In this document: piece after piece, positions 175 to 19,900 of the stretch | How positions within the stretch are numbered: position 1 is the stretch's first letter | How the letters are laid out: each line of letters opens with the position of its first letter | From: Candidatus Tenderia sp. | Lineage (GTDB): Bacteria; Pseudomonadota; Gammaproteobacteria; Tenderiales; Tenderiaceae | DNA length: 25,017 nucleotides | NCBI GenBank assembly: GCA_031416075.1 | Contig: JANOSY010000086.1 | Coordinates: 1 to 25,017 of the forward strand | Reading direction: 5' to 3' | Notes under the pieces: model-generated | Databases searched by the model: none | What the model was told of the DNA's origin: nothing | The model's input: only the letters and a program-made list of their open reading frames with translations | Made by a program: the position numbers and the translations under genes

Positions 175-198
175 CACCACAAATTTTGGAGATACAAA

Positions 199-879
199 AT
201 GCGTATTGCCCTCATCGAGGATGATCCTACACAGGCATCACTTTTAAAAAGCTGGTTAACGGCTGCCGACCATCACGTGCACCATTATGACAGCGGTGAG
301 AGTTTTACCCGTGCACTAAATCAGGAGAGTTTTGATCTCATGGTGATGGACTGGGGGTTACCTGACATTAGTGGCATTGAGCTGGTGAAAAGTGTTCGAG
401 CCAAAGACACATTGGTTCCTGTACTCTTTATTACCAGTCGTGATAGCGAACAGGATATCGTGGCGGCCCTTGCCGCAGGTGCTGATGATTATCTGATCAA
501 ACCACCACGTCAAGGCGAAACACTGGCACGCATCGCCGCACTGCAGCGCCGCAGCCAAGTGGGAGACAATGAGGAGAACCTGCTTCAATTTGGTCCCTAT
601 ACCCTTGATAGTGAGCGCAATACGATTCTTTATAACGACGAGGTGATTCAATTTACCCACAAAGAGTTTAAATTCGCCCATTTTCTATTTCAGAACCGCA
701 ACCGGCTGTTATCACGCGGCCACCTGTTGGAAAATGTCTGGGGATTAAACGCCGAAGTAACAACACGTACCGTCGATGTGCACGCCAGCAAAATCCGTCG
801 CAAACTGGGATTGAGCACTGCCAACGGCTGGCGTCTGGTATCAATTTACCAATATGGTTATCGCCTTGAAACGCTATAG
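199..879 (+). CDS. OmpR/PhoB-family DNA-binding response regulator
   Basis: Receiver motifs LIEDD, VMDWGLP, FITS and ADDYLIKP; winged-helix C-terminus RTVDVHASKIRRKL...YGYRL. Start moved to ATG 199, which follows a GGAG RBS at 188-191. Confidence 0.95.
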   Translation: MRIALIEDDPTQASLLKSWLTAADHHVHHYDSGESFTRALNQESFDLMVMDWGLPDISGIELVKSVRAKDTLVPVLFITSRDSEQDIVAALAAGADDYLIKPPRQGETLARIAALQRRSQVGDNEENLLQFGPYTLDSERNTILYNDEVIQFTHKEFKFAHFLFQNRNRLLSRGHLLENVWGLNAEVTTRTVDVHASKIRRKLGLSTANGWRLVSIYQYGYRLETL

Positions 880-929
880 TTAAACGATTGCAACCTCATC
901 GTATGGGCATCCTCTCAGAGAATCTATTC

Positions 930-2534
930 ATGGCTACGCGCACTAATGGCTCAGGAAAGGGCCGATTACAACGCCTGCTGTTAGCCTCACTGATGTTTAT
1001 CATCGTCATTAATAGTAGTTATGGCAGCGACTGGGTCTATACGGTGCGCCCCAGCGACAGCATCTGGCAACTGTCGCAACAGTACCTAAAAAATCCCAAC
1101 CAGTGGCCTGACGTGCAAAAGCTTAATAACATCAGCAATGCACAGGCCATGCGTCCCGGCACCCGAATCACCATCCCTGTCGAGTGGTTAAAACACTCGC
1201 CCAAACCCGCAAAAATCATCAAGAGCCATGGCAATGTCGCGCTGGCCAACGATGGCAAAATACGCCCCTTTACCCCACCCGCCATTATCAATAGTGGTGA
1301 TACGTTAAGCAGTGGCAATAACAGTAGCGCCACCATTGAGTTTGCTGATGGGTCGCTGCTGATTCTCCAGCCAAATAGTGAGGTATCAATGGATAGCCTC
1401 GGCAGCTTTGATGCCACAGGCATGGTTGATACTTCAGTGCGATTAAAAAAAGGGCGTGTTGAGAACAGGGTGGCCCCACAAAAACCCGACAGTCGCTACC
1501 GCATTATCACACCGGCAGCTGTGGCCGCCGTACGTGGCACCGAGTTCCGAGTGGGCGGTGACAATGGCGGCGCGCTCATGCGCAGTGAAGTGCTGGACGG
1601 CAAAATTGCTGTCACCGGCTCTGGTGTCACCCGTGAGGTCCCACTAGGCTACGGCACCGTAGCTGAAAGCGGCAAACCGCCCTCCGAACCCGAACCCCTG
1701 CCAGCGGCACCGGATCTGTCAGGCCTGACCCAGCGTGGTTCACAATCGGGGATCAGCTTTCACTGGCCTGCGGTAAATGGTGCTGTCGGTTATCGCGCTC
1801 AACTGGCCTACAACGAAGAGTTCACCACCGTGCTTCGCGACGAGTTACTAAAGAGTCCCGAGCTCACACTACTCAACTTGGAACCGGCCGACTACGTGCT
1901 GCGGCTGCGCGCCATCAATCAATCGGGATTGGAGGGATTTGATGCATTACACTCGTTTACCATCATCGCACCGATCCCCATACCGCGCCCCACCACCCCC
2001 GAGGATGGGGCAGCACTAACGTTAGGCAAACCGTGGATCGGCTGGTCCGCCACCCCCGATACAAGCTTTTATCTGCTACAACTGGCGACAGACGCACAGT
2101 TCACCGCCAATCTTCAAGAGATCAGCGGCATCGTCAACAACCACTACCGCCCTCTTGATGATCTCCCCGCTGGCCCTTACTACTGGCGTGTGGCCAGCTT
2201 CGCCAACAGCATCAAAAGCGAGTTCAGCACCCCACGTCAATTCCTTATCTCAACCAAACCTGCGCCCCCCGGCGGGATTAGTGCCACACTCAATCAGCGT
2301 AACGCAGGCTTTAACTGGGAGGCTATTGATGGCGCGGCAGAGTACCAGTTCCAACTTGGCCCCTATGAAGACTTTACCGCCCTCACCATCAACAGCCGCA
2401 CCAGCGATAACCACTACGGCGTTAAGTTGCTCGCCCCCGGTCAATATCACTACCGCGTCCGTGTGATCAACGACGATGGCCAAAGCGGTCCCTACGGCCC
2501 TGTCGGGGTACTGGTGGTGCCCAATGTGCCCTGA
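930..2534 (+). CDS. Secreted LysM + FecR + fibronectin type III repeat protein
   Basis: Signal-peptide-like N-terminus; LysM (YTVRPSDSIWQLS...LNNI...MRPGTRITIP); FecR-type domain (ATIEFADGSLLILQPNS...TPAAVAAVRGTEF); three FN3-like repeats (W...Y.xQL...L.xG.YxWRV). Start uncertain (888, 930 or 993). Confidence 0.85.
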   Translation: MATRTNGSGKGRLQRLLLASLMFIIVINSSYGSDWVYTVRPSDSIWQLSQQYLKNPNQWPDVQKLNNISNAQAMRPGTRITIPVEWLKHSPKPAKIIKSHGNVALANDGKIRPFTPPAIINSGDTLSSGNNSSATIEFADGSLLILQPNSEVSMDSLGSFDATGMVDTSVRLKKGRVENRVAPQKPDSRYRIITPAAVAAVRGTEFRVGGDNGGALMRSEVLDGKIAVTGSGVTREVPLGYGTVAESGKPPSEPEPLPAAPDLSGLTQRGSQSGISFHWPAVNGAVGYRAQLAYNEEFTTVLRDELLKSPELTLLNLEPADYVLRLRAINQSGLEGFDALHSFTIIAPIPIPRPTTPEDGAALTLGKPWIGWSATPDTSFYLLQLATDAQFTANLQEISGIVNNHYRPLDDLPAGPYYWRVASFANSIKSEFSTPRQFLISTKPAPPGGISATLNQRNAGFNWEAIDGAAEYQFQLGPYEDFTALTINSRTSDNHYGVKLLAPGQYHYRVRVINDDGQSGPYGPVGVLVVPNVP

Positions 2535-2550
2535 ACAGGGCTGACCGTAA

Positions 2551-5211
2551 ATGAAGCACCGTTGGCACCGCTTTGCCATACCACAACAGTTCGGTTTTGC
2601 GATATTGCTGATCGGCATTACCCTGGGGCTTAGCTATGGCGACTGGCTCTGGCGTGCTGACAAAGCGCTTTATGATGCCAATCACCACCTGCTGGCCCGG
2701 CCGACAGCACCTGAAATAGTCATTGTGGCTGTGGATGAATACAGCCTCTCCAGTCTAGGACGCTGGCCGTGGCCACGTCACCTGCACGCCGAACTGATTG
2801 ACCAGTTGACCCGTGCGGGTGCCGATACCATCATTCTCGATTTCATCTTTGCAGAACCTGACAACAGTGATCCCGGTAATGATATTGCCCTGGCCGCAGC
2901 TATGCAGCGTCACGGCCGAGTAATCCTTCCACTCCTGGTAGAAGAGCGCCAACTTGGCGGCCAACTGCTGGAGACACTGCCACTCCCCGAGTTTGTCAGT
3001 GCCGCTGCAGGGATCGGTCATGCTCACATGGAGTTGGACGCCGATGGCATCGCCCGTAGCGTATATCTGCAAGAGGGGCTGGCAACACCGCGCTGGCCAC
3101 ACCTCACCGTTGCGGCACTCAGGCTGCAGGAGCCAACCCGATGGCAAACCCTTCCTGGTCGCCACAACCCCAAGGCCGAACCCAACAATGCCTCTCCTCA
3201 CCTGCTGATGCGTGACTCACAAATACTGGTCCCCTTTGCTGGCCCCCCCGGCCACTACCCCCACATCTCTTACGCAGAGGTGGTTACCGGGCACTATCTA
3301 GCCGATACATTTAGAGGCAAAACTGTCCTTGTTGGCACCACAGCCACCGGTCTTGGTGATGTTTTGCCAACGCCTGTTTCAGGCTTTAACCAACCCATGC
3401 CAGGGGTTGAGATCAACGCCAACATCTTTGACGCCCTGCAGAATGAGCTAGCCGTAGAGCCACTCCCACAGTGGCTACGAACTACCATCAGCCTCATCAT
3501 CATATTAATACCCGTACTACTCTTCTCACGGCTCACCCCTCGGGCAGCGCTACTCACCACCGGTACCCTGTTATTCGCCAGCCTCGCCCTCAGCGCCCTG
3601 CTCATCCACCGTTTTCAACTCTGGTTTCCACCCGCAGCCGTGGTTATCCCGCTATTACTGGCCTATCCACTCTGGAGCTGGCAGCGGTTGGAGTACGCCA
3701 ACCGCTTTCTGACGCTGGAGTTAAAACGACTGCGCGATGAGCCCACCCTGACCCAACTCCCCCCTGTTGATGACATGAAGCAGGTGATGCAATTTGTACA
3801 GCAACAGCTACCCATCACAGGCTGGGGCTTATACAACAGTGCTGGCCAGAAAATCGCCACCTGGGGCCAGCCACCCATTACGCTGTCACCCACACAGGAA
3901 ACAGAACAGTGGTACAGCCGCCAGACGGGAGAGTGGTGGATAACATTTGAACGTGAGGAACAGCAGTGGCGACTCGGCATCAGCAGTGGCAATACAGCGC
4001 CGCCAACAATCGAACAGGAGCATCTACTGCTGAACCTGATACAACCGTGGCTTCCGGCCAGAGAGCGGGAGTCAGCCAGTCGTATTGAACGCTTCGAAAC
4101 ACGGGTACAAGCGGTACAGGAGGCGGTAACACGAATGCAGACCATGCGCCGTTTTATTAACGACAGCCTCTCACAAATGGCCGATGGCGTCATCGTTATA
4201 AACACCCTCGGACAGATTATCCTCATCAATCCTAAGGCCGTCGCTTACTTCGGGCTGCCGCTGGAAACAGAGACACTCACCGGCCACTCCGCCATTGAAC
4301 TGCTCAACCAGCTCGACAATACACGGCCAGAGCGCTGGGAGCGGCTGCTGGCACTACCACTCAAAACAGGAGAAACAGCACAGAGCGAAACACGCAGCAG
4401 CACCGGGCGCGACCTGCTGGTACGTTGCGCACCACTCACCCTGGAACAACAGCAGCGTAGCGGTCTGGTCATCAACCTCTCCGACATCACCCACCTGCTT
4501 GACATCGAACGGACACGTGCTGATACCCTGCGCTTCCTCACCCACGATCTGCGTGCACCACTGGTATCACTACTCGCCTTATCCCAGCTTGCCCGCGCAC
4601 CAGAGGCTGATATCGCCCGTGAGGAGCTGATCAATCGTGTCGAAGATCACGCCCAAACCACACTCACCCTCGCCGAAGAGTTCCTCAACCTCAGCCAGAT
4701 TGAAGGGGCACTACACCTGGAACTGCGACCCGTAGAACTAACCACCGTCGCCCTCAACGCCATCGACGCAGTATGGGACCAGGCACGCATGAAACAGATT
4801 ACCCTCGTCGAAGCACTGCCCGAATCACTGATACTGGTCATGGCCGACCCCACCGTACTACAACGTGTACTGGTCAACCTGCTCAGCAACGCCATCAAGT
4901 ACAGCCCGACCAATACCAGCATCGAACTCATTATCCAGACCGCTCATACAACCGTAGCGTGCTGTGTCCACGACCAAGGCAGCGGCATTACAGCCACAGA
5001 GATCCCCCAGCTCTTCGAACGTTTTTATCGTACCCCCAGCGCCATTAACTCCGGCATCCAGGGTACAGGTCTCGGACTTGCGTTTGTCAAGGCCGCCATG
5101 GAAAAACTAGGCGGCAGCGTGACTGTGACAAGTGAAACAGGAAAAGGGGCATGTTTCTGCATCCGCCTGCCACAGCTCGAAGAACCCCAAGACGAGGCCA
5201 TAACCAATTGA
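2551..5211 (+). CDS. CHASE2-domain, PAS-containing sensor histidine kinase
   Basis: CHASE2 motifs (IVIVAVDEYSL..LGRWPWPR, D.DGIAR, GKTVLVG, MPGVEINA); three TM helices after the sensor domain; PAS (ADGVIVINTLGQIILINP); H-box THDLRAPL; N-box NLLSNAIKYS; G1 DQGSGI; G2 GTGLGL. Confidence 0.95.
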   Translation: MKHRWHRFAIPQQFGFAILLIGITLGLSYGDWLWRADKALYDANHHLLARPTAPEIVIVAVDEYSLSSLGRWPWPRHLHAELIDQLTRAGADTIILDFIFAEPDNSDPGNDIALAAAMQRHGRVILPLLVEERQLGGQLLETLPLPEFVSAAAGIGHAHMELDADGIARSVYLQEGLATPRWPHLTVAALRLQEPTRWQTLPGRHNPKAEPNNASPHLLMRDSQILVPFAGPPGHYPHISYAEVVTGHYLADTFRGKTVLVGTTATGLGDVLPTPVSGFNQPMPGVEINANIFDALQNELAVEPLPQWLRTTISLIIILIPVLLFSRLTPRAALLTTGTLLFASLALSALLIHRFQLWFPPAAVVIPLLLAYPLWSWQRLEYANRFLTLELKRLRDEPTLTQLPPVDDMKQVMQFVQQQLPITGWGLYNSAGQKIATWGQPPITLSPTQETEQWYSRQTGEWWITFEREEQQWRLGISSGNTAPPTIEQEHLLLNLIQPWLPARERESASRIERFETRVQAVQEAVTRMQTMRRFINDSLSQMADGVIVINTLGQIILINPKAVAYFGLPLETETLTGHSAIELLNQLDNTRPERWERLLALPLKTGETAQSETRSSTGRDLLVRCAPLTLEQQQRSGLVINLSDITHLLDIERTRADTLRFLTHDLRAPLVSLLALSQLARAPEADIAREELINRVEDHAQTTLTLAEEFLNLSQIEGALHLELRPVELTTVALNAIDAVWDQARMKQITLVEALPESLILVMADPTVLQRVLVNLLSNAIKYSPTNTSIELIIQTAHTTVACCVHDQGSGITATEIPQLFERFYRTPSAINSGIQGTGLGLAFVKAAMEKLGGSVTVTSETGKGACFCIRLPQLEEPQDEAITN

Positions 5212-6823: not shown

Positions 6824-7606
6824 TCAACAATCACATACACTCCAACGTATAAATTCTTTACTCTCTAGCCTCTGTGGCTGCCGAAAGAAACTCTTCATTT
6901 CACCACTTTCAATAAGCTTGCCTTCACACATAAATATAATGTAATTACCAATACGTTTACTCTGCTCGATATCATGGGTCACCGATAAAATGGGCATCTG
7001 TCGCGCTAACAAGAGCATAGACTCCTCTATCAATTGTTTGGAGCCAGGATCAAGAGACGCCGTAGGTTCGTCCAACAGTAATAATTGTGGCGCTACTGCC
7101 AATGCACGGGCAATACAGAGTCGTTGCTGCTGACCTAACGAAAGTGTTACAGCTGGACTGTTTAAACGATCTTTCACTTCATCCCACAAGGCAGCTTGTT
7201 GCAAACTCTGCTCCACCACCAGATCCCCGTGGCGACGCTGCTGTTGTGTCAAACCAAAAGTCACATTGTCACGGATGCTCACCGGGAACACACAGGGCTT
7301 TTGTGCAATCAGGCCAACATGACGGCGCAGCTGGTCCCAGCCGCCAGGCCATTCCTGCAGGTCTTGATTATCGAGCAGAATCCGCCCCTGCCACCCCTGT
7401 TGCAAACCGTTAATACAACGTAACAACGAGCTTTTACCCGCGCCTGAAGGACCAATCAGTGTGGTAATACCACGCTTCGGCAATACTGCCGATATGTCAC
7501 GTAAGATATCAACGCCATCCATACTCAAGGATAGCCCCTCTATCACTAGGGAGGTCGTTTGAGAAACATCATCCGACATCTCAGAAAAATCAACGCTGGA
7601 ACTCAT
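6824..7606 (-). CDS. pstB: PstB-like ABC transporter ATP-binding protein
   Basis: Walker A GPSGAGKS; PstB-typical AALWDEVKDRL; signature LSLGQQQRLCIARALA; Walker B LLLDEPTASLD. ATGA overlap with the upstream permease. Confidence 0.85.
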   Translation of the reverse strand: MSSSVDFSEMSDDVSQTTSLVIEGLSLSMDGVDILRDISAVLPKRGITTLIGPSGAGKSSLLRCINGLQQGWQGRILLDNQDLQEWPGGWDQLRRHVGLIAQKPCVFPVSIRDNVTFGLTQQQRRHGDLVVEQSLQQAALWDEVKDRLNSPAVTLSLGQQQRLCIARALAVAPQLLLLDEPTASLDPGSKQLIEESMLLLARQMPILSVTHDIEQSKRIGNYIIFMCEGKLIESGEMKSFFRQPQRLESKEFIRWSVCDC

Positions 7607-8436
7607 ACAGTTACCCTCCAGGTTTTAAGCCAACGGGCCAGCACTCCAAATATCGCCACCATTACAATCAATACCAAGGCACTCCCCCAGGCGACTTGCG
7701 TTGCCTGGGCATTATTACCCTCTTGGGCAAGATAGAAGATATGTGTCTGAAGTGTGGTCACCGGCTCAAAGATCGACCCTGGCCAGACCACACCAGAAAA
7801 AACCGTGGCCGTAAAAAGAATGGGCGCTGTTTCGCTGAGCACCCGCGCCATCGCCAGCAACTGTCCAGTGACAATGCCAGGCCACGCCTGTGGCAACCAG
7901 ACCCGCCAGACCAGTGTTGCATGGCTCAATCCCAGCGCCTGCGCCGCCTCCGTCTGTTCAATCGCAACACGCTCCAGCGCCGCAACCGTATTCAGCATTA
8001 ACAGTGGCAAAATCACTGCCGCAAGCGTGACCGCCCCTGTCAATAACGACACCCCCCACTGCAACAGATGCACACACAAAATCAATCCGCACAAACCAAA
8101 TACAATCGGTGGAACTCCATGCAACATATTAATCAGAGTAATCAACAGATGTCGCTGACGCGGCCCCGCCAGCAAACAGTAATAGAGCGCTGCCCCAAAA
8201 GCGATGGGCGCAGCCAGCAGCGACGCACCCACCGCCAACAGCAGCGAACCCACAATTTGCGCCAGTATGCCACTGGAGTTACCAAACCCCACCCCTTCAC
8301 CGGTTGTGGTCAGAAATGTCCAATCCAGTGCGGGCGCGCCTCGAAACACAATATAAATGAGCGTGGCAGCTGGCAACAGCAGGGCTGGTAGCGCCAAAGT
8401 GATCACCAACAGTTTAGCCAGATCTGTCCTACGCAT
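7603..8436 (-). CDS. pstA: PstA-like ABC transporter permease
   Basis: Multi-TM protein with GVPPIVFGL, EAA loop (EAAQALG), ARVLSETAP and TTLQTHIF. ATG 8436 overlaps the pstC stop. Confidence 0.85.
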   Translation of the reverse strand: MRRTDLAKLLVITLALPALLLPAATLIYIVFRGAPALDWTFLTTTGEGVGFGNSSGILAQIVGSLLLAVGASLLAAPIAFGAALYYCLLAGPRQRHLLITLINMLHGVPPIVFGLCGLILCVHLLQWGVSLLTGAVTLAAVILPLLMLNTVAALERVAIEQTEAAQALGLSHATLVWRVWLPQAWPGIVTGQLLAMARVLSETAPILFTATVFSGVVWPGSIFEPVTTLQTHIFYLAQEGNNAQATQVAWGSALVLIVMVAIFGVLARWLKTWRVTV

Positions 8437-9283
8437 GGCGCACACTACGCTGCGCCATTAGTGACACCGCAATCGCCACCAACGCCAGCACCAAACCACC
8501 ACTCATCAATGCCGCCCAGTGCAACGATCCCATATCCGCCTCCGCCATCTCACGACCGATACGTGAGGTGAGTGTTTGCGCCGGTAACAGCAGGTTATAA
8601 AAAGGCTCCGGCAGACGATCAAGCGACCCCACCACCAACATCACCGCCACCGTTTCACCCATAACACGCCCTAACGCCAACAATATCGCCACACGGATAC
8701 CCGGCCACGCCTGCGGCAATATCACCCGGTACAACAACGTTGGCCAATCAAGCCCCAGTTGTAACGCAGTTTCACGCTGCTCTATAGAGACACCACTAAT
8801 GGCATCCTCTGCCAGCACCATAATCGTCGGCATCACCATTAACGCCAACAACATGCCCGCGGCCAAGAGCGTGCGTCCCGTCAGCAGGTCAAGCTGACTC
8901 TCCAGAAACGGTAACAGCAACCATAACCCCAACAGCCCATAGACAACCGAGGGGATCCCCGCCATCAGCTCCATACTAAAACGGACCCCACTGCGCAGCC
9001 GTGATGGGAGCAGTTCAGCGCTCATAATGGCGGCAGAGAGTGCCAGTGGCACCGCCATCAATAACGCCACACTCACCACCCAAAAACTCCCCAGCAGGGC
9101 CGGTGCAAGGCCATAAATATCTTCATAGGGATACCATTCAGGCTCGGTGACAAAACCTAATCCCTGGGCCTGCAGTAAGGGCCAGCTGGCATGTAACAGA
9201 AAACCCAACACCACCACAACCGCCAGCGCGGCAAGCGTTGCTGATGTGATGAGCCAGAGTTTTAGTATAGAGAAGCGCACCAC
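8429..9283 (-). CDS. pstC: PstC-like ABC transporter permease
   Basis: Motifs W.P....YG, ELMAGIPSVVYGL, MVMPTI...EDA and LGRVMGETVAV. Confidence 0.88.
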   Translation of the reverse strand: MVRFSILKLWLITSATLAALAVVVVLGFLLHASWPLLQAQGLGFVTEPEWYPYEDIYGLAPALLGSFWVVSVALLMAVPLALSAAIMSAELLPSRLRSGVRFSMELMAGIPSVVYGLLGLWLLLPFLESQLDLLTGRTLLAAGMLLALMVMPTIMVLAEDAISGVSIEQRETALQLGLDWPTLLYRVILPQAWPGIRVAILLALGRVMGETVAVMLVVGSLDRLPEPFYNLLLPAQTLTSRIGREMAEADMGSLHWAALMSGGLVLALVAIAVSLMAQRSVRHA

Positions 9284-9285
9284 CG

Positions 9286-10110
9286 TTATCGCACCCGTAA
9301 ATAGCCAATCTGTTCCACAATGCGCTGCCCGGCATCCGACAACAGAAACTCAACAAAATCGTTGGCCGGCTTGTCCACATCGCCCATGAATAGAACATTT
9401 AACTCCCGCTGAATGGGATAGAGGCCATCCGCCACATGTTCAATGGTTGGCAACACCGCTTTACCAACATCGCCAATAGCCACCGCACGCACAGCATCAT
9501 TCAACCAGGCATTAGAGAGCATTCCAATCGCCTGACGACTGCCAGCGATGGCTGCCTGCTCCTCATTGTTTGAACCGGAGATAATCGTGGCACCCGGCGC
9601 ACGCGCCTGCTCATCACCCAACACCACCTTGGCAAAGACATGCCGGGTACCACGCGACGCCTCCTTGTCGATCACCAGAATAGCCGCATCGAGCCCGCCC
9701 ACCGCCTTCCAGTTTTTAATCTCGCCACGGTAGATAGCTGCAACCTGGGCCAGCGTCAGCGCTCTCACCCCACCCTCATAAACCGCCTTGGAGACAGCCA
9801 CAGCCACCGCATCACGCGCCACAGCCACCACTTTAAAACCAGGGGCAAGGCGCTGCTGCTCTTTAACCGTCAATGTCCGAGACAACATGCCGATCTCCGC
9901 CGTGCCCTGCTGTATGGCGGAGATGCCGACACCGGAACCACCACCCGATACCGTTAACGTCAGCGCTGGATTCAACTGCCGGTACTGCTTGGCCGCCTCC
10001 GCAATGATTGGCAACACCGTGGTAGAACCCACCACACGCAACTGCTCTGCCGCCTGTAGTGGTAAAACAAAGATCGATATGATCACCAACAGAAAAAATG
10101 GATAAGACAA
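9286..10110 (-). CDS. pstS: PstS-family periplasmic anion-binding protein with an atypical pocket
   Basis: Signal peptide ending LQA-A; motifs GSTTV, GGGSGVG, GMLSR, A.DAVAV and YPIQREL. TTG start preceded by GGGGAGAG. Confidence 0.85.
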   Translation of the reverse strand: MSYPFFLLVIISIFVLPLQAAEQLRVVGSTTVLPIIAEAAKQYRQLNPALTLTVSGGGSGVGISAIQQGTAEIGMLSRTLTVKEQQRLAPGFKVVAVARDAVAVAVSKAVYEGGVRALTLAQVAAIYRGEIKNWKAVGGLDAAILVIDKEASRGTRHVFAKVVLGDEQARAPGATIISGSNNEEQAAIAGSRQAIGMLSNAWLNDAVRAVAIGDVGKAVLPTIEHVADGLYPIQRELNVLFMGDVDKPANDFVEFLLSDAGQRIVEQIGYLRVR

Positions 10111-10157
10111 GGTACTCTCCCCAACAGATCGTCGTTATTCAACAGAATCCACCCATA

Positions 10158-10184
10158 GTCGCATAGCCCCACCACACCTTACAC
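10158..10184 (-). promoter_or_regulatory. Putative ECF sigma promoter for the pst-like operon
   Basis: Minus strand GTGTAAGGT-N14-CGAC (i.e. GTAAG-N16-CGAC). Identical boxes and spacing to the plus-strand copy. Confidence 0.65.
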
Positions 10185-10215
10185 CTAAGGTTCACAAAAG
10201 AGACTCCGTTACCCT

Positions 10216-10242
10216 GTGTAAGGTTCAAGCGCCTGCCACGAC
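10216..10242 (+). promoter_or_regulatory. Putative ECF sigma promoter for the arsS operon
   Basis: Plus strand GTGTAAGGT (10216-10224)-N14-CGAC (10239-10242), about 60 bp upstream of the first start codon. Confidence 0.65.
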
Positions 10243-10303
10243 CAGATACACAATGCCAGTATAGATCAGCAGCTGATTACAGTAGGATATGCAGGAGATA
10301 ACT

Positions 10304-11035
10304 ATGGATAGCCCCGCCAACCCCACAATGCCCCCCCCCAACCGCTGGATAAAACTCAGCATCGCTACCCTTTTTATAAGTGGCATCAGCGCCTTTTTCA
10401 TCTTTGGCGGTGATGATTTTCTATCGCTGAATGCACTGCGCAACAACCGCGACGCACTCCTGAACTATACACAGGAGCACTACACCCGCGCACTACTGCT
10501 GGCAATATTGATTTACGCCGTAGCCACCGCAATGAGTTTTCCCGGTGCCACCGTGCTGTCGCTGGCGGTTGGTTTTCTATTTGGCCGCTGGGTGGGCACG
10601 GCAATCATCCTCATCGCCGCTACGCTGGGTGCCACCTTGGTATTTCTTGCCGCCCGTTATCTGTTTGCAGACACCCTGCGTAAAAAGCTCAACAGTGGCA
10701 TGGCTGCAAAATTGATCAAGGGCTTTAATGACGACGCCTTCCACTACCTGCTATTTCTACGCTTGGTACCCATATTCCCATTTTGGCTCGTTAACTTGGC
10801 ACCCGCCTTCACACCTATTAAAGTACGCACCTATGTTTTGGGTACCATCATCGGCATCCTGCCCGGCTGTTTTATCTTTGCTAATCTAGGCCAATCACTT
10901 GGGCGTATTGAATCACTACAAGAGCTGCTCTCACTTGAGACCCTGCTGGCCTTTGCCCTGCTTGGACTCTTTGCCCTGGTGCCGGTTATGATAAAAAAAC
11001 TTCGCAAACCCGTTATGAATGAGGACAAACAATAA
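10304..11035 (+). CDS. TVP38/TMEM64 (DedA superfamily) membrane protein
   Basis: Motifs FPGATVLSLAVGFLFG, ATLGATLVFLAARYL and LFLRLVPIFPFWLVNL. An AGGAG RBS at 10293-10297 supports ATG 10304. Confidence 0.92.
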   Translation: MDSPANPTMPPPNRWIKLSIATLFISGISAFFIFGGDDFLSLNALRNNRDALLNYTQEHYTRALLLAILIYAVATAMSFPGATVLSLAVGFLFGRWVGTAIILIAATLGATLVFLAARYLFADTLRKKLNSGMAAKLIKGFNDDAFHYLLFLRLVPIFPFWLVNLAPAFTPIKVRTYVLGTIIGILPGCFIFANLGQSLGRIESLQELLSLETLLAFALLGLFALVPVMIKKLRKPVMNEDKQ

Positions 11036-11985
11036 TGCACGCCACACTGCCACTGCTTGAAGCCACTAAATTTCCGGCCATTAAACGGGGCACACTCACT
11101 ACACTGCAAGTCAACTTAGGCTATCGCTGCAATCAACAGTGTTTGCATTGCCATGTTAACGCAGGGCCTAAACGCACCGAAAACATGAATCGTGAAACGG
11201 TGGATCAGGTACTGCAGCTACTCCGCAGTTCAGGTGCCAAACAGCTCGACCTCACGGGCGGTGCGCCAGAGCTCAACCCCAACTTCCGTTATCTGATTAC
11301 CGAGGCGCGTAAACTTGGCGTCCATGTGATTGACCGCTGTAACCTGACCATCCTGTTTGAACCTGGACAGGAGGGGCTGGCACAGTTTCTCGCAGACCAT
11401 CAGGTTGAAGTAGTCGCCTCACTCCCCTGTTACCTGAAAGAGAATGTTGATCAACAGCGGGGCAAAGGTGTCTTTGACAGCAGTCTGGCAGCACTCAAAC
11501 TGCTCAACACCCTCGGTTACGGCAAAACACTCCCACTCAATTTAATGTACAACCCACAAGGGCCATCCCTGCCACCCCCCCAGGCACCCCTTGAAGCAGA
11601 CTTTCGTCAACGACTCTGGGACGATTACAACATTGTCTTCAGCAATCTATACACACTGACCAACATGCCGATCCAACGTTTTGGCTCAACACTCATCTCC
11701 AAGGGGCAGTTTGCCGAATACATGCAGCTCCTGCGTGATAACTATCAAGCCGACAACCTTGACGGCGTCATGTGTCGCCACCTGATCAGCATTGACTGGC
11801 AAGGGTATCTCTATGATTGCGATTTCAACCAGATGTTAAAACTCCCCGCACCCGTCAGCCATAAACCCAATAGCCACATCAGCGATATCATTGGCGTTGA
11901 TCTGCATGGAACGCCGATCGTGGTCAAAGACCACTGTTACGGCTGTACCGCCGGGCAAGGTAGTAGCTGCGGCGGGGCGCTGTAA
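11035..11985 (+). CDS. arsS: Arsenosugar biosynthesis radical SAM protein ArsS (Cys form)
   Basis: TLQVNLGYRCNQQCLHCHVNAGP (CxxxCxxC); DLTGGAPE; DRCNLT; ASLPCY; YDCDFNQML; C-terminal HCYGCTAGQGSSCGG. TAATG overlap with the upstream gene. Confidence 0.92.
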   Translation: MHATLPLLEATKFPAIKRGTLTTLQVNLGYRCNQQCLHCHVNAGPKRTENMNRETVDQVLQLLRSSGAKQLDLTGGAPELNPNFRYLITEARKLGVHVIDRCNLTILFEPGQEGLAQFLADHQVEVVASLPCYLKENVDQQRGKGVFDSSLAALKLLNTLGYGKTLPLNLMYNPQGPSLPPPQAPLEADFRQRLWDDYNIVFSNLYTLTNMPIQRFGSTLISKGQFAEYMQLLRDNYQADNLDGVMCRHLISIDWQGYLYDCDFNQMLKLPAPVSHKPNSHISDIIGVDLHGTPIVVKDHCYGCTAGQGSSCGGAL

Positions 11986-11991
11986 ATTACC

Positions 11992-12717
11992 GTGCAAGCG
12001 GCCATAGATAACAAGGATGGCGGCGCGCCACGACCCGCGACACTCAAACTCTCCATCATCATCCCAACCCTCAATGAGGCGGAGAGCATCATCAACATCC
12101 TCACCGCGTTACAGCCGATACGGCAACAGGGGCACGAGGTGATTGTCTGCGATGGCGGCAGCAGTGATAACACTGCCGTGCTGGCGCAACCACTGGTGGA
12201 TACGTTAGTTCAGAGCGAACGTGGTCGCGCCCTGCAGATGAATAGCGGGGCCAGCCATGCCAGCGGTGATATTCTGCTGTTTCTGCATGCCGATACCCAG
12301 CTCCCCGATAACGCAGCGTTACTGATTGAAGAGGCATTAAACAGAAAAACCTGGGGCCGTTTTGATGTGCGCCTCACAGGGCAACAACCGCTGTTACGTT
12401 TGATCGAATATATGATGAACAGACGCTCACAACTGACCGGCATATGTACCGGCGATCAGGCCATCTTTATTCGCCAGGGTCTGTTCCGCGCCATCGGTGG
12501 CTATCCTGATATTGCCCTGATGGAAGATATCGCCATCAGCCGCATGCTGAAACCCCAGAGTCACCCCGCCCGTATAAAAACAGCCGTTCTAACCTCCAGC
12601 CGTCGTTGGGAGCGCCGGGGCATTATACAAACCGTACTACTGATGTGGTGGTTGCGACTCGCCTACTTCTTTGGCCGCGACCCCGAGCAGCTCGCCAAAC
12701 GTTATCAACAGGGTTAA
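11992..12717 (+). CDS. TIGR04283-type family 2 glycosyltransferase (ArsS-associated)
   Basis: LSIIIPTLNE, DGGSSD, GRALQMNSGA, LFLHADT, GDQAIF, LMED and TSSRRW motifs, plus gene context. Confidence 0.9.
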   Translation: MQAAIDNKDGGAPRPATLKLSIIIPTLNEAESIINILTALQPIRQQGHEVIVCDGGSSDNTAVLAQPLVDTLVQSERGRALQMNSGASHASGDILLFLHADTQLPDNAALLIEEALNRKTWGRFDVRLTGQQPLLRLIEYMMNRRSQLTGICTGDQAIFIRQGLFRAIGGYPDIALMEDIAISRMLKPQSHPARIKTAVLTSSRRWERRGIIQTVLLMWWLRLAYFFGRDPEQLAKRYQQG

Positions 12718-12719
12718 CG

Positions 12720-13334
12720 ATGCAACTCCCTGACGCCTGTATCATCATCTTTGCCAAAGCCCCCATCCCTGGCCAGACCAAAACACGACTGATCCCGGCG
12801 TTAGGGGCAAAGGGGGCGGCTGCACTCCATGAAAAGCTGGTGACACATACACTCAATACCACCACTCAAGCCAACCTCTGCCCGGTAGAGCTCTGGTGTG
12901 CGGATGCAACAGAACACCCATTTTTCGACGATCTTCAACGCCGTTATCCCATCACGCTCAAACAGCAACGGGGCGACGATCTTGGCCAGCGAATGAGTCA
13001 CGCCTTTGACGTCACGCTCACACAACGACCCTACGCCCTGCTCATCGGGAGTGATACCCCGTCACTCAACCGGCAAGATCTGCACGACGCACTCCAGGCG
13101 CTACAACAAGGCACGGAGTGCGTGCTCAACCCCGCCGCAGATGGTGGTTATGTACTCATCGGATTGCGCCGCGCTAACCCGGCGCTTTTCCAGAACATTC
13201 AATGGGGGGGTGACACCGTGTTAGCCGCCACCCGGCAACAGCTGTTAAAACAGAAAATGAGTTGGCGCGAACTTAAAACCCATCGTGACATCGATCGACC
13301 AGAAGATCTGCTGTTGTGTAATATCCCGTCATGA
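12720..13334 (+). CDS. TIGR04282/DUF2064-type transferase (ArsS-associated)
   Basis: FAKAPIPGQTKTRL, Q...DLGQRM, IGSD.P, PAADGGYVLIG and DIDRPEDL. The true start is ATG 12720 rather than 12606. Confidence 0.9.
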   Translation: MQLPDACIIIFAKAPIPGQTKTRLIPALGAKGAAALHEKLVTHTLNTTTQANLCPVELWCADATEHPFFDDLQRRYPITLKQQRGDDLGQRMSHAFDVTLTQRPYALLIGSDTPSLNRQDLHDALQALQQGTECVLNPAADGGYVLIGLRRANPALFQNIQWGGDTVLAATRQQLLKQKMSWRELKTHRDIDRPEDLLLCNIPS

Positions 13335-13801
13335 TCAGCCATCTTCAAACCCGCACATACCATTCCCCACGCCTGTGGCCACTCCTGCTGATCCTGCTCC
13401 TGATAACCAGCCGTGTCAGCCACGCCGCTGACACACGCATCACCATCAACGGCGTTGGTTTTGATGTCGAGCTGGCGATCACTCAAGAGGAACAGAGCCA
13501 GGGGTTGATGGGGAGAACCCATCTGGAAAAAGGAACCGGCATGTTATTTGTCTACAGCGACCCCAGAGAGCTATCATTTTGGATGAAGGAGACACTCATC
13601 CCGCTGGATATCCTCTTTTTTGACCATAACAGCACACTGATCAAACTCTTCAGCAAAGTCCCCCCCTGTAAAAAAGATCCTTGCAAAACCTATTCAACCC
13701 CCAGCCCCGCTCTATACGTACTTGAACTGCCTGCCGGTACCGCAAAAAAAATAAAACTAAAACCCGGCGACAGGTTCCTACATGCCAGCCCTCTGGAGTA
13801 A
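13331..13801 (+). CDS. DUF192 family exported protein
   Basis: Signal peptide; VELA...GLM.R, GMLFVY, FWMKET.IPLDILF and YVLELPAG; PPC...PC pair. ATGA overlap with the upstream gene. Confidence 0.9.
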   Translation: MISHLQTRTYHSPRLWPLLLILLLITSRVSHAADTRITINGVGFDVELAITQEEQSQGLMGRTHLEKGTGMLFVYSDPRELSFWMKETLIPLDILFFDHNSTLIKLFSKVPPCKKDPCKTYSTPSPALYVLELPAGTAKKIKLKPGDRFLHASPLE

Positions 13802-14462: not shown

Positions 14463-15752
14463 GTGTCGAGAACCGTTTTCGAACGCACCATACATGGGGT
14501 GTACGTCACCACCCTGATGGTGATTACCAGCAGCGCAATGGCCCAAACCACCCCCTGGACGCTGGAATCATCGGTCCAGCAGGTACTGGAGGTGGCCCCT
14601 GAACGGCAAGCTGCCGAGGCCGAGGTGATGATTCTGCAAGGCCACCGGCAGCAAGCCGGACGCTGGCACAACCCCACCATTGAGCTGGGGGCCAGCAACG
14701 CCATGAGTAAAGAGGATGGCCAAGGGGGCACCACACTCAACGACATCACCATCCGACAGCCACTGCCACTGAGCGGCCGCCTTAATCTGCAACGTCAGCA
14801 GGCCGATGCCCAGCTCAAACAGGCCCAGGCCGGGGTATCAGAGCAGAACCTGACATTGGAGTATGAGGCCGCCCGTGTTTTCCACAGCCTGCAGCTCAAC
14901 CGCGCCCTGAATCAGCTGGCAGAACAGCGGTTACAGAGTGCCGATGAGTTCCAGCACATCGGCCGTCGCCGCGAACAGGCGGGGGATCTCTCCCGTCTGG
15001 AGCGGCTACGGCTCGACCTGATCCGCGAAAACGCCAGCCAACTCATCGCCAATACTGAAGGCAAGGAGAGTGAGTCGCTGAGCGATTTTAGAACCCTGTT
15101 AAACCTGACCGAGACAGAACCCGGCGTCACTGCGCTGGAGCAGATGCCACCCTACCCCGCACTCGCCGAGCTGGAGCAACAGCTGGAGCAGCACCCCGCA
15201 CTGCTCGCCGCCCGGCAGAAAATAACCGCCGCCCGTAATGGCATTGATATCGCCCGCGCCAGCCGCCTGGCCGATCCTGAACTCTGGCTCTCACGGGGAC
15301 GCGACTATCTGGGGGGACAACGCCAGGATGTGACTGCCTTTGGTGTCGCCATCACCTTACCGCTTTGGAACAACGGTACCGGCCAGATCGACTCCGCCCG
15401 TGCAACACGGGACAAGGCGCAGTTTGAACTGGAGACAGTGCAACGCCAGCTCAGCAACCGGTTACGTCTTAACCATCTGCATCTGGGCCACCTGCTGGAA
15501 CAGGCGCAAACGTATCTGCCCAAGGTGCTGGAGCCTGCCGAGCAGCTTTTTCAACTCAGCCGTAGCGGATTTAACGCCGGTGAGGTGGAGATTCTTGCCC
15601 TGGTGGATGCCGTCAACGGCTACTACGAAGCCCGCGCCCGCTATCTGGAGCTGTTACAGCAGACCTGGCTGGAGGCGGCTGAACTGCGCCGCTCCGCCGG
15701 TATATCCCTGCTGACAGCCACCCCCCCTATCACTAAAGGAATCGTACAATGA
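14463..15752 (+). CDS. czcC: TolC-family outer membrane factor, CzcC-like
   Basis: Signal peptide, duplicated OEP repeat pattern (NP.IELG / DPELWL; QPLPL / ITLPLW; AGD / AGE). AGAGGA RBS 8 nt before the GTG start. Confidence 0.85.
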   Translation: MSRTVFERTIHGVYVTTLMVITSSAMAQTTPWTLESSVQQVLEVAPERQAAEAEVMILQGHRQQAGRWHNPTIELGASNAMSKEDGQGGTTLNDITIRQPLPLSGRLNLQRQQADAQLKQAQAGVSEQNLTLEYEAARVFHSLQLNRALNQLAEQRLQSADEFQHIGRRREQAGDLSRLERLRLDLIRENASQLIANTEGKESESLSDFRTLLNLTETEPGVTALEQMPPYPALAELEQQLEQHPALLAARQKITAARNGIDIARASRLADPELWLSRGRDYLGGQRQDVTAFGVAITLPLWNNGTGQIDSARATRDKAQFELETVQRQLSNRLRLNHLHLGHLLEQAQTYLPKVLEPAEQLFQLSRSGFNAGEVEILALVDAVNGYYEARARYLELLQQTWLEAAELRRSAGISLLTATPPITKGIVQ

Positions 15753-16900
15753 GAACACTACCCCTGCACTCTGCCCTTATCTGCCTGCTGCTCCCGCTCA
15801 CTGGCTACGCCTTGGAGCTGACACCGCAGCAACAGTCCAGCCTTAAAATCGATACAGTCACACTACAGGCACGTGAATCGGCCGCCACCGTAATAGCCAG
15901 CGGCACGCTGCAAGCAGACCAGAAGCGGCTCTTCCGGGTGACCCCGGTGGTCGCCGGACTGGTCACTGATCTGAACGTGGTGGCGCAGACCACCGTCCGT
16001 AAAGGCCAGCTGCTGGCACAGCTGCACAGCAACGCGCTGGGCGAGGCCCAGGCAGAGTATCTGGACGCGCTGTCCCGGCATGAGGTGGCGCAGAGTGATC
16101 TGCAACGCATTCAATCCCTATATAAGGAGGGAGTCGTAGCAGAAAGCCGTCTGCAAGAGGCCGACAGCCAACACAAATCGGTCCAGGCGATGCTTGACCA
16201 GAAACGTCGCGCCCTGACACTGGCCGGTGTTAACAAGGCCGGCATTGAGGCCCTCACACACCAGCCTGATCAACTGGCCCGCTACCCACTTGTCAGCCCC
16301 GCCAATGGCGTGGTGCTGGAGGTCTCCATTGAGAATGGCCAGATGTTGGCAGCGGGTGAGACCGCTTTTCGCATCGCCGACCTGAGTAAACTCTGGGCCG
16401 AGATTCGCATCCCGGTCAGCACCATGGCGCAGATAAAACCTGGCAGCCAAGTGGCCATCAAGGTCGCCGCCTTTCCGCAACAGAGCTTCCCCGGCCAACT
16501 CCAGAGCCTCAGTGGCGAGGTAGAGGCTGAGAGCCAGACGATCTCCGGACGGGCAGTGATCGACAATAGCAAGGGGCTGCTGCGCCCCGGCATGTACGTA
16601 CAGGCAGAGTTGCAAGGGGTAGCCGAGTCGGGGCTGATGGCACCGGCCAGCGCCCTTTTCCGGCGCGGTAACGACAATTACCTCTTCAAGGTCACGGGCC
16701 CACGCAGCTATGATCCCGTCAAAGTCACCGTTGGCGGCAGCAGCAACGGCTGGGTCAGCATCAAGTCAGTCGCTTCCGCCATCCCTGGCTCTCGCGACAC
16801 TTGTACGTCGTGTACATCGGGTATCGCGGCAGGCACTGTGGTGGTCAGCAGCGGCGTGGCAGAACTCAAATCCCACTGGCAGTACAAGGGAGGCGAGTAG
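15749..16900 (+). CDS. czcB: RND efflux periplasmic adaptor (MFP), CzcB-like
   Basis: Lipoyl half-motifs (VAGLV...VRKGQLLAQL; SPANGVV), IADLSKLWAE and LRPGMYV. ATGA overlap with czcC. Confidence 0.88.
   Translation: MRTLPLHSALICLLLPLTGYALELTPQQQSSLKIDTVTLQARESAATVIASGTLQADQKRLFRVTPVVAGLVTDLNVVAQTTVRKGQLLAQLHSNALGEAQAEYLDALSRHEVAQSDLQRIQSLYKEGVVAESRLQEADSQHKSVQAMLDQKRRALTLAGVNKAGIEALTHQPDQLARYPLVSPANGVVLEVSIENGQMLAAGETAFRIADLSKLWAEIRIPVSTMAQIKPGSQVAIKVAAFPQQSFPGQLQSLSGEVEAESQTISGRAVIDNSKGLLRPGMYVQAELQGVAESGLMAPASALFRRGNDNYLFKVTGPRSYDPVKVTVGGSSNGWVSIKSVASAIPGSRDTCTSCTSGIAAGTVVVSSGVAELKSHWQYKGGE
16769..16819. repeat. 51-nt double-hairpin palindromic element inserted in frame in the adaptor gene
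   Basis: GTCGC..GCCA-TCCC-TGGC..GCGAC followed by TGTAC-GTCGT-GTACA. It interrupts the conserved MFP motif W.xI.SG-[IL]xAG.xVV with 17 extra residues. Confidence 0.7.
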
Positions 16901-16903
16901 ACC

Positions 16904-19900
16904 ATGATAAATGCACTAATCCGTTTCGCCCTCGTCCAGCGGCTGATGATTCTGCTGCTGGCATTGGGGTTGAGTGGCGCGGGCATCTGGGCCTTCCAGA
17001 CCCTGCCTATCGACGCCTTTCCCGAGATCTCCTCGCCCCAAGTACGGATGGTGGTCAAAGCGCCGGGCTTATCCCCGAGTGAGGTCGAGAGCCGTGTCAC
17101 CTTCCCCATCGAGGTGGAGATGCAGGGGCTGCCACGGCAGACCATGCTGCGCTCCACCACCAAATATGCCTTGAGCATCATCACCATCGACTTTGAGGAT
17201 GGCACCGACATCTACTGGGCACGCCAGCAGGTCACCGAGCGCCTTAATCAGGTGTGGAGTGAACTGCCCGCCGGGGTTGAAGGTGGCCTCGGCCCGATCA
17301 CCACCCCGCTGGGTGAGGGGTATATGTATGAAATCAAAGGTGAAGGCTACAGCAACCAGGAGCTGCGCCGCATCCAGGACTGGGTGATTCGCCCACGCCT
17401 GCGCGGTGTCGATGGTGTTGCAGACGTCAACTCCCTCGGCGGTGAAGTCAAAGTATACGAAGTTGTCGCCAATCCAGTAGCGCTGGCGGCCCGTGGTCTG
17501 GGCATCGACGAGCTGGAGACGGCGCTGCAAGCCAACAACCGCAATGCGGGCGGCGACCGCATCAACCGCAATAACGAAGTATTGCTGGTACGCACCGTTG
17601 GCCAGCTGCGTGGCATGGAGGAGATCGGCGCTATCACCGTCGCCAGTCGCAACGGCACCCCAGTGCATGTCAGTGATGTCGCCGAGGTGCGTATCAACTC
17701 TCTCACCCGCTACGGCGCGGTGACCGCCGATGGCAAGGGCGAAGTGGTCACCGGTCTGGTACTGATGCGTGAAGGGGCCAACAGCCGTACCACCATTGAG
17801 GGGGCCAAACAGGCGCTGGAAGCGCTCAAACCGGCACTGCCCAAAGGGGTCGAGATTATCCCTTTTTACGACCGCACTGAGCTGGTCAATGACGCCGTCT
17901 GGACGGTTGAAAAGGCGCTGGGCGAGGCGGTTGTTCTAGTGCTGATCGTACTGCTGGTAATGCTCGGCAATCTGCGCAGCGCCCTGACGGTGGCGCTGAT
18001 CCTGCCGCTGTCGGTGCTTTTCACCTTTGTTATGATGCGGCTCTTTGGCATCACCGCCAATCTCATGTCGCTGGGCGGTCTGGCCATCGCCATTGGTATT
18101 CTGGTGGATGCGGCGGTGGTGGTGGTGGAGAACATCCATACCCGTCTCAGCCATGCCCCCAAAGGGGTGAGCCGATTGCATCTGGTCTATCGCGCGGTGG
18201 TCGAAGTGGCGACACCGGTGATCTCCGGCATCCTGATCATCATCGTGGTCTTCCTGCCGATCTTCAGCCTCAGTGGTCTGGAGGGCAAGATGTTCTCGCC
18301 ACTGGCAGTGACCATCAGCTTTGCCTTGATCGGTTCGTTGATCTTGTCACTAACGGTGATCCCGGTACTGGCCAGTCTGCTGATGCGCGGCGGTAGCGAG
18401 GCGGATGGCCGTCTGCTGAGTGTTCTGAAAAAGCTCTACCTGCCGGTGATGCGCTGGGCCTTGCGGCAGCGCAAGATTGCCGTCGGCGGTGCGGTGGTGG
18501 CGCTGGTGCTGGCATTGGCGCTCTTCCCGCTAATCGGCAAGGAGTTCATGCCGATCATGGATGAGGGGACCACCGTGGTCATCATCGAAAAGCTGCCGAG
18601 CATCTCACTGGAGCGTTCGGTCGCCCTGGATGAACCCTACCAGAAGGCGATGATGGAGCTACCGGAGGTAATCGGCGTGGTATCACGCACCGGCGCCGAT
18701 GAGCTGCGCCTGGACCCGATGGACCTGAATCAGACCGACAACTTCCTCATCACCAAACCACGCAGTGAATGGAGCATAAGCCTGGAAGAGTTTCAGGCGC
18801 AATTGCGTGAAAAACTGGATGGTCTGGTGGGCATCGACTACGCCTTTACCCAGCCCATCGACATGCGTGTTTCGGAGATGCTCACCGGTGTGCGCGCCGC
18901 CATGGCCATCAAACTCTATGGCGATGATCTTGCCGTGCTGGAGGAGAAGTCCAAACAGATCGAGGAGCTGGTGAACAAGGTGCCCGGCGCGGTGGATGTC
19001 TTCCGCGAACAGCTCTCTGGCCAGATCTATCTGCAGATCGAGATCAGACCCGAGGCGATCGCCCGTTTTGGTATCAATACCGAGGCGATCAACAGGTTGA
19101 TCGAGGTAGCGGTGGGTGGCCGCGTGGTCACCGAGATCATTGAAGAGAGCCAGCGTGTCGGTGTGCTGTTGCGTTACCCGGAACAGGCACGCACCTCGCC
19201 ACAGGCGATTGCGGCGCTGCTGGTGGAGGCGCCCGGTGGCAACAAGATCAGGCTCGATAGTCTGGCCGACATCCGCGAAGTGGATGGCCCGGTGGTGATA
19301 TCACGTGAGTCAGCCCAGCGCCAGGTGGTGGTGCAGGCCAATGTCGAGGGGCGTGACGTGGTCAGCTTTGTGGATGAGGTACGCGCCACCATCGAACGGG
19401 AAGTGGAGCTGCCGACCGGCTATTACATCACCTACGGCGGCCAGTTTGAAAACCAGCAACGCGCTGCGTCGCGTCTGGCCATGGTGGTGCCGATCGCCAT
19501 TGTGCTGATCTTCCTGATGCTCTTCACCACCTTCCGCTCACTGCGGCAGGCGGGGCTGATCATCCTCAACATCCCCTTTGCCATGATCGGCGGCGTGGTC
19601 AGCCTCTACCTCTCGGGACTCTATCTCTCCGTGCCTGCGTCAGTGGGTTTCATCACCCTCTTTGGCGTGGCGGTACTCAACGGCGTGGTGATGGTGACCT
19701 TCTTCAACCAGCTGCGTGAAACCGGCCGCACGGTATTGCAGGCGGTACAGGAGGGGGCGGAACGGCGGCTACGGCCTGTGTTGATGACAGCACTGATCGC
19801 CAGCCTCGGATTAGTGCCCTTGTTAACGGCCACGGGTCCCGGCTCGGAGTTGCAACGACCCTTGGCGGTGGTGGTGATTGGTGGTCTGGTGACTTCAACC

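Follow-up and report, generated by a model that had tools for sequence, protein, structure and literature searches.

Layout of the pst2 and arsS operons

The window considered here is the whole of contig C86 (25,017 bases) of a 3.49 Mb, 99.98%-complete Candidatus Tenderia genome (G000). Two operons in it point away from each other across a gap of 178 bp (10111-10288): a tightly packed minus-strand operon of pstS-C-A-B-like genes (6824-10110), which we call pst2, and a plus-strand operon of the order dedA-arsS-TIGR04283-TIGR04282-DUF192 (10289-13801), which includes the gene for the radical S-adenosylmethionine (SAM) enzyme ArsS. An earlier note on this DNA had reported the same gene content and coordinates, and these stand; its figure of about 190 bp for the gap gives way to the measured one. 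Our explanation of the locus, to which as a whole we give a probability of about 0.45, is that the two operons form a single regulon with an extracytoplasmic function (ECF)-type promoter, in which pst2 would import an arsenate-type oxyanion and feed a pathway running through ArsC, ArsM and ArsS.

Open reading frames (ORFs) were scored against Pfam and NCBIfam profiles, with the curated cut-offs of NCBIfam. On the minus strand, the PstS-like periplasmic binding protein (PstS2, 9286-10110), whose N-terminus resembles a signal peptide, scores 180.5 bits against TIGR02136 (below the cut-off of 206.6) and 111.5 against the Pfam family PBP_like_2 (PF12849). It is followed by the PstC-like permease (PstC2, 8429-9283; TIGR02138, 210.4 bits, above the cut-off of 196.45), the PstA-like permease (PstA2, 7603-8445; TIGR00974, 187 bits, just under the cut-off of 193.45, with the Pfam domain BPD_transp_1) and the PstB-like ATP-binding cassette (ABC) ATPase (PstB2, 6824-7606; TIGR00972, 236.2 bits, below the cut-off of 343.2), the genes pstA2 and pstB2 overlapping by 4 nt. 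With its genes translationally coupled, the operon encodes a complete ABC importer of the binding-protein-dependent kind, with the architecture of Pst.

The plus-strand operon opens with a DedA/VTT-domain membrane protein (10289-11035; Pfam VTT_dom, 84.8 bits), followed by ArsS (11035-11985; TIGR04167, 458.5 bits against a cut-off of 300), in which the domains Radical_SAM (PF04055) and DUF3641 (PF12345) are found together with the cluster motif CNQQCLHC (CX3CX2C) and a Cys-rich C-terminus. Next come a glycosyltransferase family 2 (GT2) protein of family TIGR04283 (11992-12717; 274.7 bits, cut-off 182) and a TIGR04282/DUF2064 (CofC-like) protein (12720-13334; 215.1 bits, cut-off 134); the ORF of the latter spans 12606-13334, the profile match begins at residue 46, and the ATG at 12720 is the likely start. 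The last gene (13331-13801) encodes a DUF192 protein with an N-terminal hydrophobic stretch (Pfam DUF192, 108.3 bits). TIGR04283 and TIGR04282 genes lie beside arsS in 53 and 57, respectively, of 80 loci, and 23 of 80 gammaproteobacterial loci have a DedA homologue no more than 9.5 kb from arsS. The DUF192 gene, which among PstS2 loci is present only in L015-L017 and is found in none of 80 other arsS loci, is a lineage-specific add-on. No match to the aio or ars efflux families was found among the scanned ORFs of the window. At one related locus (L017:4259-4513, minus strand, genome G005) the dedA gene before arsS is apparently reduced to an 84-aa ORF and the divergent promoter block is intact.

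The pst2 paralogue and its binding-protein subfamily

The earlier note had held that pst2 is not the housekeeping phosphate importer but a paralogue, and had advised looking for a separate canonical pstSCAB-phoU set. Such a set is present, divided between two contigs of the same genome: C21 carries canonical pstC (751 aa), pstA (552 aa), pstB (419.1 bits) and phoU, and C24 carries phoB, phoR and a canonical pstS (282.8 bits, TIGR02136). Because pstCAB-phoU and phoBR-pstS are found elsewhere in the genome, the status of pst2 as a paralogue is supported. Three of the four pst2 proteins (PstS2, PstA2 and PstB2) score below the curated cut-offs and PstC2 alone passes; PstB2 is 43% identical to the canonical PstB of C21, and a canonical PstB above the cut-off is likewise present in each of five other genomes with pst2. 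Neither phoU nor phoBR adjoins pst2 in the window, and no Pho box was seen in a by-eye reading of 10111-10288; the earlier note had likewise seen no phoU and no tandem Pho box. Pho-box-like repeats (TGTCATA-N4-xxTAACA, also read by eye) precede the canonical pstS, phoB and pstC. In its S-C-A-B gene order, its PBP_like_2 binding protein, its two BPD_transp_1 permeases and its PstB-like ATPase, pst2 resembles the canonical PstSCAB-PhoU system (Escherichia coli type, here on C21 and C24); it differs in having no phoU, no Pho box that could be seen and an ECF-like promoter, and in two sequence motifs, one in the binding protein and one in the ATPase.

The first of these motifs is the anion loop of PstS2, DKEASRGTRH, in which K-E-A-S-R-G-T stands in place of R-x3-S-G-T, a loop that we take, from E. 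coli PstS (R135 and S139-T141), to provide ligands for phosphate. Most pocket positions are retained (GSTT, GGGSG, the SR pair and the aspartate of ARD). Thirteen of 14 PstS2-type sequences, which come from Tenderia-like Gammaproteobacteria, Zetaproteobacteria and Gillisia, carry the K-x3-R loop, the serine being kept in a Caulobacterales metagenome-assembled genome, and the loop recurs in 73 of 80 metagenome sequences of a second, G136-type clade described below; R-x3-S-G-T is found in 63 of 66 more distant relatives. The second motif is the ABC signature of PstB2, LSLGQQQR, which lies in an ATPase that otherwise shows Walker A GPSGAGKSS, Walker B LLLLDEP and the H-loop VTHD; LS(L/I)GQQQR occurs in 12 of 13 orthologous loci, the canonical form being LSGGQQQR. 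The departure of PstS and PstB from canonical motifs had been recognized beforehand, and the conservation of both changes now argues for pst2 as a working system under selection rather than one in decay.

In a maximum likelihood PstS tree (LG+C20, 61 rows), a branch with support of 95/84 separates 37 K-type rows (13 PstS2-type, 23 G136-type and G842, a long-branch relative on the K-type side) from 24 canonical rows. Because the tree unites the clade of the window with the G136-type clade, the K-x3-R-(G/S)-T swap is, at the level of sequence, the marker of one PstS subfamily, half of which is operonic with genes of arsenic methylation and adenosylation.

Among solved structures, PstS2 is closest to the phosphate-binding proteins 1TWY, 4Q8R and 4GD5 (E about 1e-32, nearly full length). 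The two ligand-contacting swaps (R to K and S to R) may reshape the pocket, and scores against TIGR02136 fall under the cut-off in both clades, as might be expected of an importer for another anion needed by the stress regulon, such as thioarsenate, phosphite, an oxyanion of selenium, molybdenum or tungsten, or a methylated arsenical (MMA or DMA), which the earlier note had listed too. We regard such a ligand as improbable, given that the permeases and the ATPase are clearly Pst-like and that the gene neighbourhoods show recurring arsenic-related genes but no recurring genes for the metabolism of another element.

Shared promoter motif and linkage to arsS

The 178 bp gap holds two copies of a promoter-like motif of ECF type, one facing pstS2 (10156-10183, minus strand, TGTAAGG-N15-CGACTA), which ends 45 nt before the TTG start codon, and one facing dedA-arsS (10217-10244, plus strand, TGTAAGG-N15-CGACCA), in agreement with the earlier report of one promoter motif in both directions. 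In its strict form, TGTAAGG-N15-CGAC(T/C)A, the motif has three sites on the two strands of the 3.49 Mb genome, two of them being this outward-facing pair. A scan of 9900-10500 with the sigma-70 consensus returned no promoters and no terminators. Two other readings of the gap were rejected: that of TGAACCTTA as a same-strand direct repeat, since orthologous loci show TGTAAGG-N15-CGAC as the conserved unit on both strands, and, by eye, that of TGGCAG-N4-TTGAA as a sigma-54 promoter, since it is one base off in spacing and the orthologues lack the -12 GC.

The strict motif precedes pstS2 in 10 of 13 orthologue loci, and in six of the seven loci where pst2 and arsS are linked it precedes the dedA/arsS operon or a DUF3179 gene that leads it (the motif-bearing DUF3179 genes being those of L022 and L023). 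A relaxed form, TGTAA(G/T)-N15-17-(C/A)GAC, carries the association to genes that are not neighbours. Before the unlinked pst2 of Zetaproteobacteria it lies on the right strand at all 19 loci that have an upstream region, where chance would give 0.13 sites over the 20 scanned. Of the 120 arsS loci, 11 have it with its start 59-96 nt ahead of arsS, where 0.23 would be expected, and seven of these 11 belong to the 11 zetaproteobacterial arsS loci, in which arsS is usually followed by arsM. The relaxed motif is also found at the operon starts of arsM-like, arsS, dedA-FAD (flavin adenine dinucleotide) and pstS genes in G136-type loci, and in many loci it lies 45-96 nt before the start codon, at a density well beyond background. 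At the level of the regulon, this is evidence for joint switching of pst2 and the ArsS genes, linked or not.

The earlier note had suggested asking whether the PstS clade is syntenic with arsS across genomes, and the answer is divided. Seven of 13 close pst2 orthologue loci have arsS within reach, and all seven are Tenderia-like. Among 17 genomes of the order to which the window belongs, 16 have ArsS and 10 have a PstS2 orthologue; arsS and pstS2 lie 0.5-6.0 kb apart in eight of these 10, several with inserted genes, and on separate contigs of fragmented assemblies in the remaining two. Beyond the order the synteny does not hold for this clade. A PstS2 orthologue (54-67% identity) is present in 43 sampled Zetaproteobacteria genomes, and in none of the 36 in which the genes could be placed do pst2 and arsS share a contig. 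From the side of arsS, 120 loci were compared, each with 9.5 kb of flanking DNA to the left and right, and pst permease genes were found near arsS in one of the 119 loci outside the order (L095, in genome G136); one further arsS locus has a canonical-type pstS alone.

The exceptional locus leads to the sister clade. On one strand, L095 carries arsS, a DedA-FAD-oxidoreductase fusion, TIGR04283, TIGR04282, DUF3047, an ArsM-like methyltransferase and pstS-C-A-B, and its PstS, 28% identical to PstS2, has the same swap in the loop K-A-E-G-R-S-T. Three further orthologues of this PstS (60-64% identity) were found in the order of G136: the arsS-pst operon is repeated in G852, the orthologue of G814 is flanked by SAM methyltransferases, and in G853 an ArsC-like gene of the LMWP family lies directly upstream and overlaps the start of pstS. 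A metagenome scan for G136-type PstS gave 80 loci (62-83% identity), 50 of them with at least one cluster gene. Where at least 9 kb of upstream flank is available, 23 of 29 loci have one or more such genes (ArsM-like in 21, DedA-FAD in 13, DUF547 in 11, arsS in seven and LMWP in four), and the ArsM-like gene is on the pst strand in 38 of 38 cases, mostly just upstream of pstS.

In the DedA-FAD gene, a DedA/VTT domain is fused to an FAD-dependent pyridine-nucleotide-disulfide oxidoreductase (MerA/Lpd-like); it is found at L095:7376-9517 (minus strand), at L214:5192-7342 (plus strand) and in 24 of the 80 metagenome loci, sits after arsS in G136-type clusters, often with DUF547, and is a candidate membrane-linked reductase. 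MsrA and MsrB genes adjoin the arsS operon of G136 (L095:11589-12751). Genes of the DUF3179 family lie beside ArsS clusters in two unrelated lineages (L022:4763-5731, L023:9046-9807 and L214:1366-2343).

A number of these findings, with some others, weigh against our explanation. Physical linkage in the clade of the window is confined to a single order, the genomes of which are related rather than independent; even within it a PstS2 orthologue is absent from six of the 16 ArsS-bearing genomes, including the 100%-complete G008. To the zetaproteobacterial result may be added Gillisia, which carries pst2 and arsS unlinked, and the single case among 119 outside loci is about what random placement would give. 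ArsS is itself common, being present in 188 of 400 genomes of the class sample (a tally that takes in four genomes flagged as unpublished, G555, G701, G456 and G713) and in most of the listed Zetaproteobacteria; for this reason the co-occurrence of PstS2 and ArsS in 12 of 13 genomes was dropped as evidence. No arsenic gene is present in six of the 29 long-flank G136-type loci, and the ArsM-like (180.8 bits against 263) and ArsC-like (55.7-60.5 bits against 174-215) proteins of the sister clade are under curated cut-offs. As to the motif, the loose form TGTAAGG-N14-16-CGAC is not enriched genome-wide (seven observed, one to eight in shuffles), and the likeness of the motif to ECF promoters, with the SigX/SigW consensus of Bacillus subtilis as the model, is a presumed one. 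The third strict site (C2:53839-53866, minus strand) stands before the gene of a catalase-related lipoprotein (C2:52702-53829), and a relaxed site (C42:11731-11757, plus strand) precedes a periplasmic MsrB with a twin-arginine translocation (Tat) signal (C42:11797-12288); because of these sites, the regulon may answer oxidative or thiol stress in general, covering periplasmic damage.

Several of these points would be equally at home if pst2 were an ordinary second phosphate transporter that stands beside arsS by lineage-specific accident: linkage of its own clade in one order of kin genomes, its absence from 36 of 36 Zetaproteobacteria and from Gillisia, and a frequency outside the order that approaches chance. 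We consider this very improbable. Accident does not account for a rare shared motif that recurs before unlinked pst2 and arsS operons, nor for a sister clade that shares operons with ArsM-like and ArsS genes at most of its long-flank loci, and the changes in binding loop and ATPase signature are conserved. On these patterns, co-regulation of pst2 with the arsenic genes and a functional tie to them, taken by themselves, are well supported and probable, and to that extent the co-regulation with ArsS-type genes proposed in the earlier note is borne out.

Other genes of the window and its relatives may be mentioned here. Three plus-strand genes (148-5211) form an operon that converges on pstB2 and encode a response regulator of the OmpR/PhoB family (148-879), a protein with a FecR domain (888-2534) and a histidine kinase of CHASE2-PAS type (2551-5211); the operon is kept beside pst2 at least in L017, and the CHASE2 protein is also present in L016. 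Directly downstream of the ArsS cluster lies a CzcCBA-type heavy-metal resistance-nodulation-division (RND) efflux set (14463-19981, plus strand) made up of a TolC-like protein, an adaptor and a member of the CusA/CzcA family (1092.8 bits). Downstream of pst2 in a Tenderia relative (L020:13345-15477, plus strand), a phospholipase-D-like/VTT-DedA fusion is followed by an Exo_endo_phos protein, an arrangement that hints at lipid head-group chemistry.

A proposed arsenic pathway and possible roles of pst2

A regulator for the two operons can be suggested. Genes for a TIGR02943-family ECF sigma factor, with a small HxxxCxxC anti-sigma factor, occur at 12 of 120 arsS loci, nine of 80 G136-type loci and two of 13 PstS2 loci. 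The genome has its own copy on contig C7 (C7:13522-14094; TIGR02943, 189.3 bits against a cut-off of 162.2), directly downstream of which is the gene (C7:13267-13518) for a small anti-sigma factor of the HxxxCxxC (zinc-type) kind, and an ArsC-like LMWP gene lies on the opposite strand about 2 kb from the pair (C7:16098-16583). Within C7:11246-16583 the sigma and anti-sigma genes are followed by three unassigned genes, one with two CxxCH haem motifs. We suggest that the motif would be read by a sigma factor of this family, held by its anti-sigma factor until a thiol-reactive signal such as arsenite releases it. The motif was not found upstream of the C7 sigma gene, which leaves autoregulation without support.

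Our current working hypothesis for the pathway is that, with the two divergent operons acting as one regulon, induced Pst2 would import arsenate or a close arsenic oxyanion, which an ArsC-type enzyme would reduce and ArsM would then methylate. ArsM is encoded on contig C46 (C46:586-1461; NF008823, 348.6 bits against a cut-off of 263), with an ArsR-family gene upstream. ArsS would adenosylate the resulting dimethylarsenite, in keeping with the conversion of DMAs(III) to 5'-deoxy-5'-dimethylarsinoyl-adenosine (DDMAA) given for this enzyme in the accessible text of PMC13598754, and the two transferase-like proteins, with DedA, may take the product further, towards conjugation with a sugar or a lipid. 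In a bolder form the hypothesis would have a thiol-sensing anti-sigma/ECF pair detect arsenite and induce an arsenate-preferring importer together with ArsM and ArsS, as a widespread regulon for the deliberate acquisition of arsenic, beyond mere detoxification, in making arsenosugar-type compounds or lipids in bacteria such as iron-oxidising Zetaproteobacteria and relatives of Tenderia; this form, in which deliberate acquisition is taken up from the earlier note, is tentative and rather unlikely.

An opposite role for the same genes deserves attention, namely that arsenic stress induces a Pst variant whose altered pocket discriminates against arsenate, so that phosphate is imported and arsenate excluded. 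The accessible part of PMC3834237 proposes that pst/pho genes of arsenic islands aid the use of low phosphorus under high arsenic. Exclusion of arsenate also fits the paralogue status of pst2, the shared stress-type promoter and an arsM under ArsR control in the style of detoxification, and it agrees with closest solved relatives that all bind phosphate and with a pocket most of whose positions are retained. Carriers of the PiT family are poor at discriminating arsenate, and a PiT gene (PHO4, PF01384) lies directly before arsS in at least four of the 120 loci under a strict filter, all in Gammaproteobacteria (L142:8369-9451, L148:8346-9452, L152:10472-11560 and L169:8369-9451); these genes, each coding for some 360 aa, stop a few bases short of arsS, which an ArsM-like gene follows, an arrangement that fits supply better than exclusion. 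The genome of the window, 99.98% complete, has no PiT gene (PF01384). The ArsC-like reductase that stands between the ArsM-like gene and pstS in some sister-clade loci would likewise fit the handling of imported arsenate, and PMC7533571 states, in the text accessible to us, that the PstS1 encoded by such an island binds As(V), with Pst1 bringing it into the cell. We think an arsenate-excluding importer rather unlikely, though it is the chief rival and agrees with most of the evidence.

A second Pst system beside arsenic genes is already known from the aioBA islands, whose pst1/pho1 genes (Li et al., 2013, PMC3834237; PMC7533571), as far as the accessible text of these papers goes, likewise accompany arsenic genes, both in position and in regulation, in genomes with a housekeeping copy elsewhere; ArsS, TIGR04283 and TIGR04282 are also already named by NCBIfam. 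In contrast to the islands as described there, the partner of pst2 is an ArsS/arsenosugar-type cluster and not an aioBA/ars operon, no phoB/phoR adjoins it, and the candidate regulator is an ECF sigma factor rather than PhoB, AioR or ArsR. The ArsM-ArsS pair of Synechocystis sp. PCC 6803, in the portion of PMC13598754 available, is matched here by ArsS and ArsM proteins that both score above their cut-offs, but arsM is unlinked (with arsR on C46), and the ArsS cluster adds DedA, TIGR04283, TIGR04282 and DUF192 and faces an importer. The PiT-arsS-arsM operons represent another recruitment of a phosphate-family carrier to an ArsS operon, although theirs is a PHO4 secondary carrier and pst2 a binding-protein-dependent ABC importer. 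A literature search that did not extend to supplementary files found no paper in which a pst operon is tied to arsS or arsM, and a search on the ArsS-cluster families TIGR04167, TIGR04283 and TIGR04282 found no transporter context. None of the papers searched describes the PstS subfamily with the K-x3-R loop, its presence in operons with ArsM-like and ArsS genes, or the conserved ECF-type promoter joining pst2 and arsS.

Whether arsenosugar-type synthesis in bacteria is detoxification only or serves a purpose is unsettled. A binding-protein-dependent importer only brings its substrate in, and the sharing of a promoter motif between such an importer and ArsS in several lineages makes the question testable. 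The K-x3-R loop provides a simple sequence marker by which these paralogues can be separated from housekeeping PstS in the annotation of genomes and metagenomes, where they are likely to be counted as phosphate-starvation genes. The motif and the candidate ECF sigma/anti-sigma pair offer a handle on the switching of arsenic genes outside the ArsR paradigm. Together, the findings suggest purposeful uptake, in some bacteria, of a compound of arsenic or phosphate alongside the ArsS pathway.

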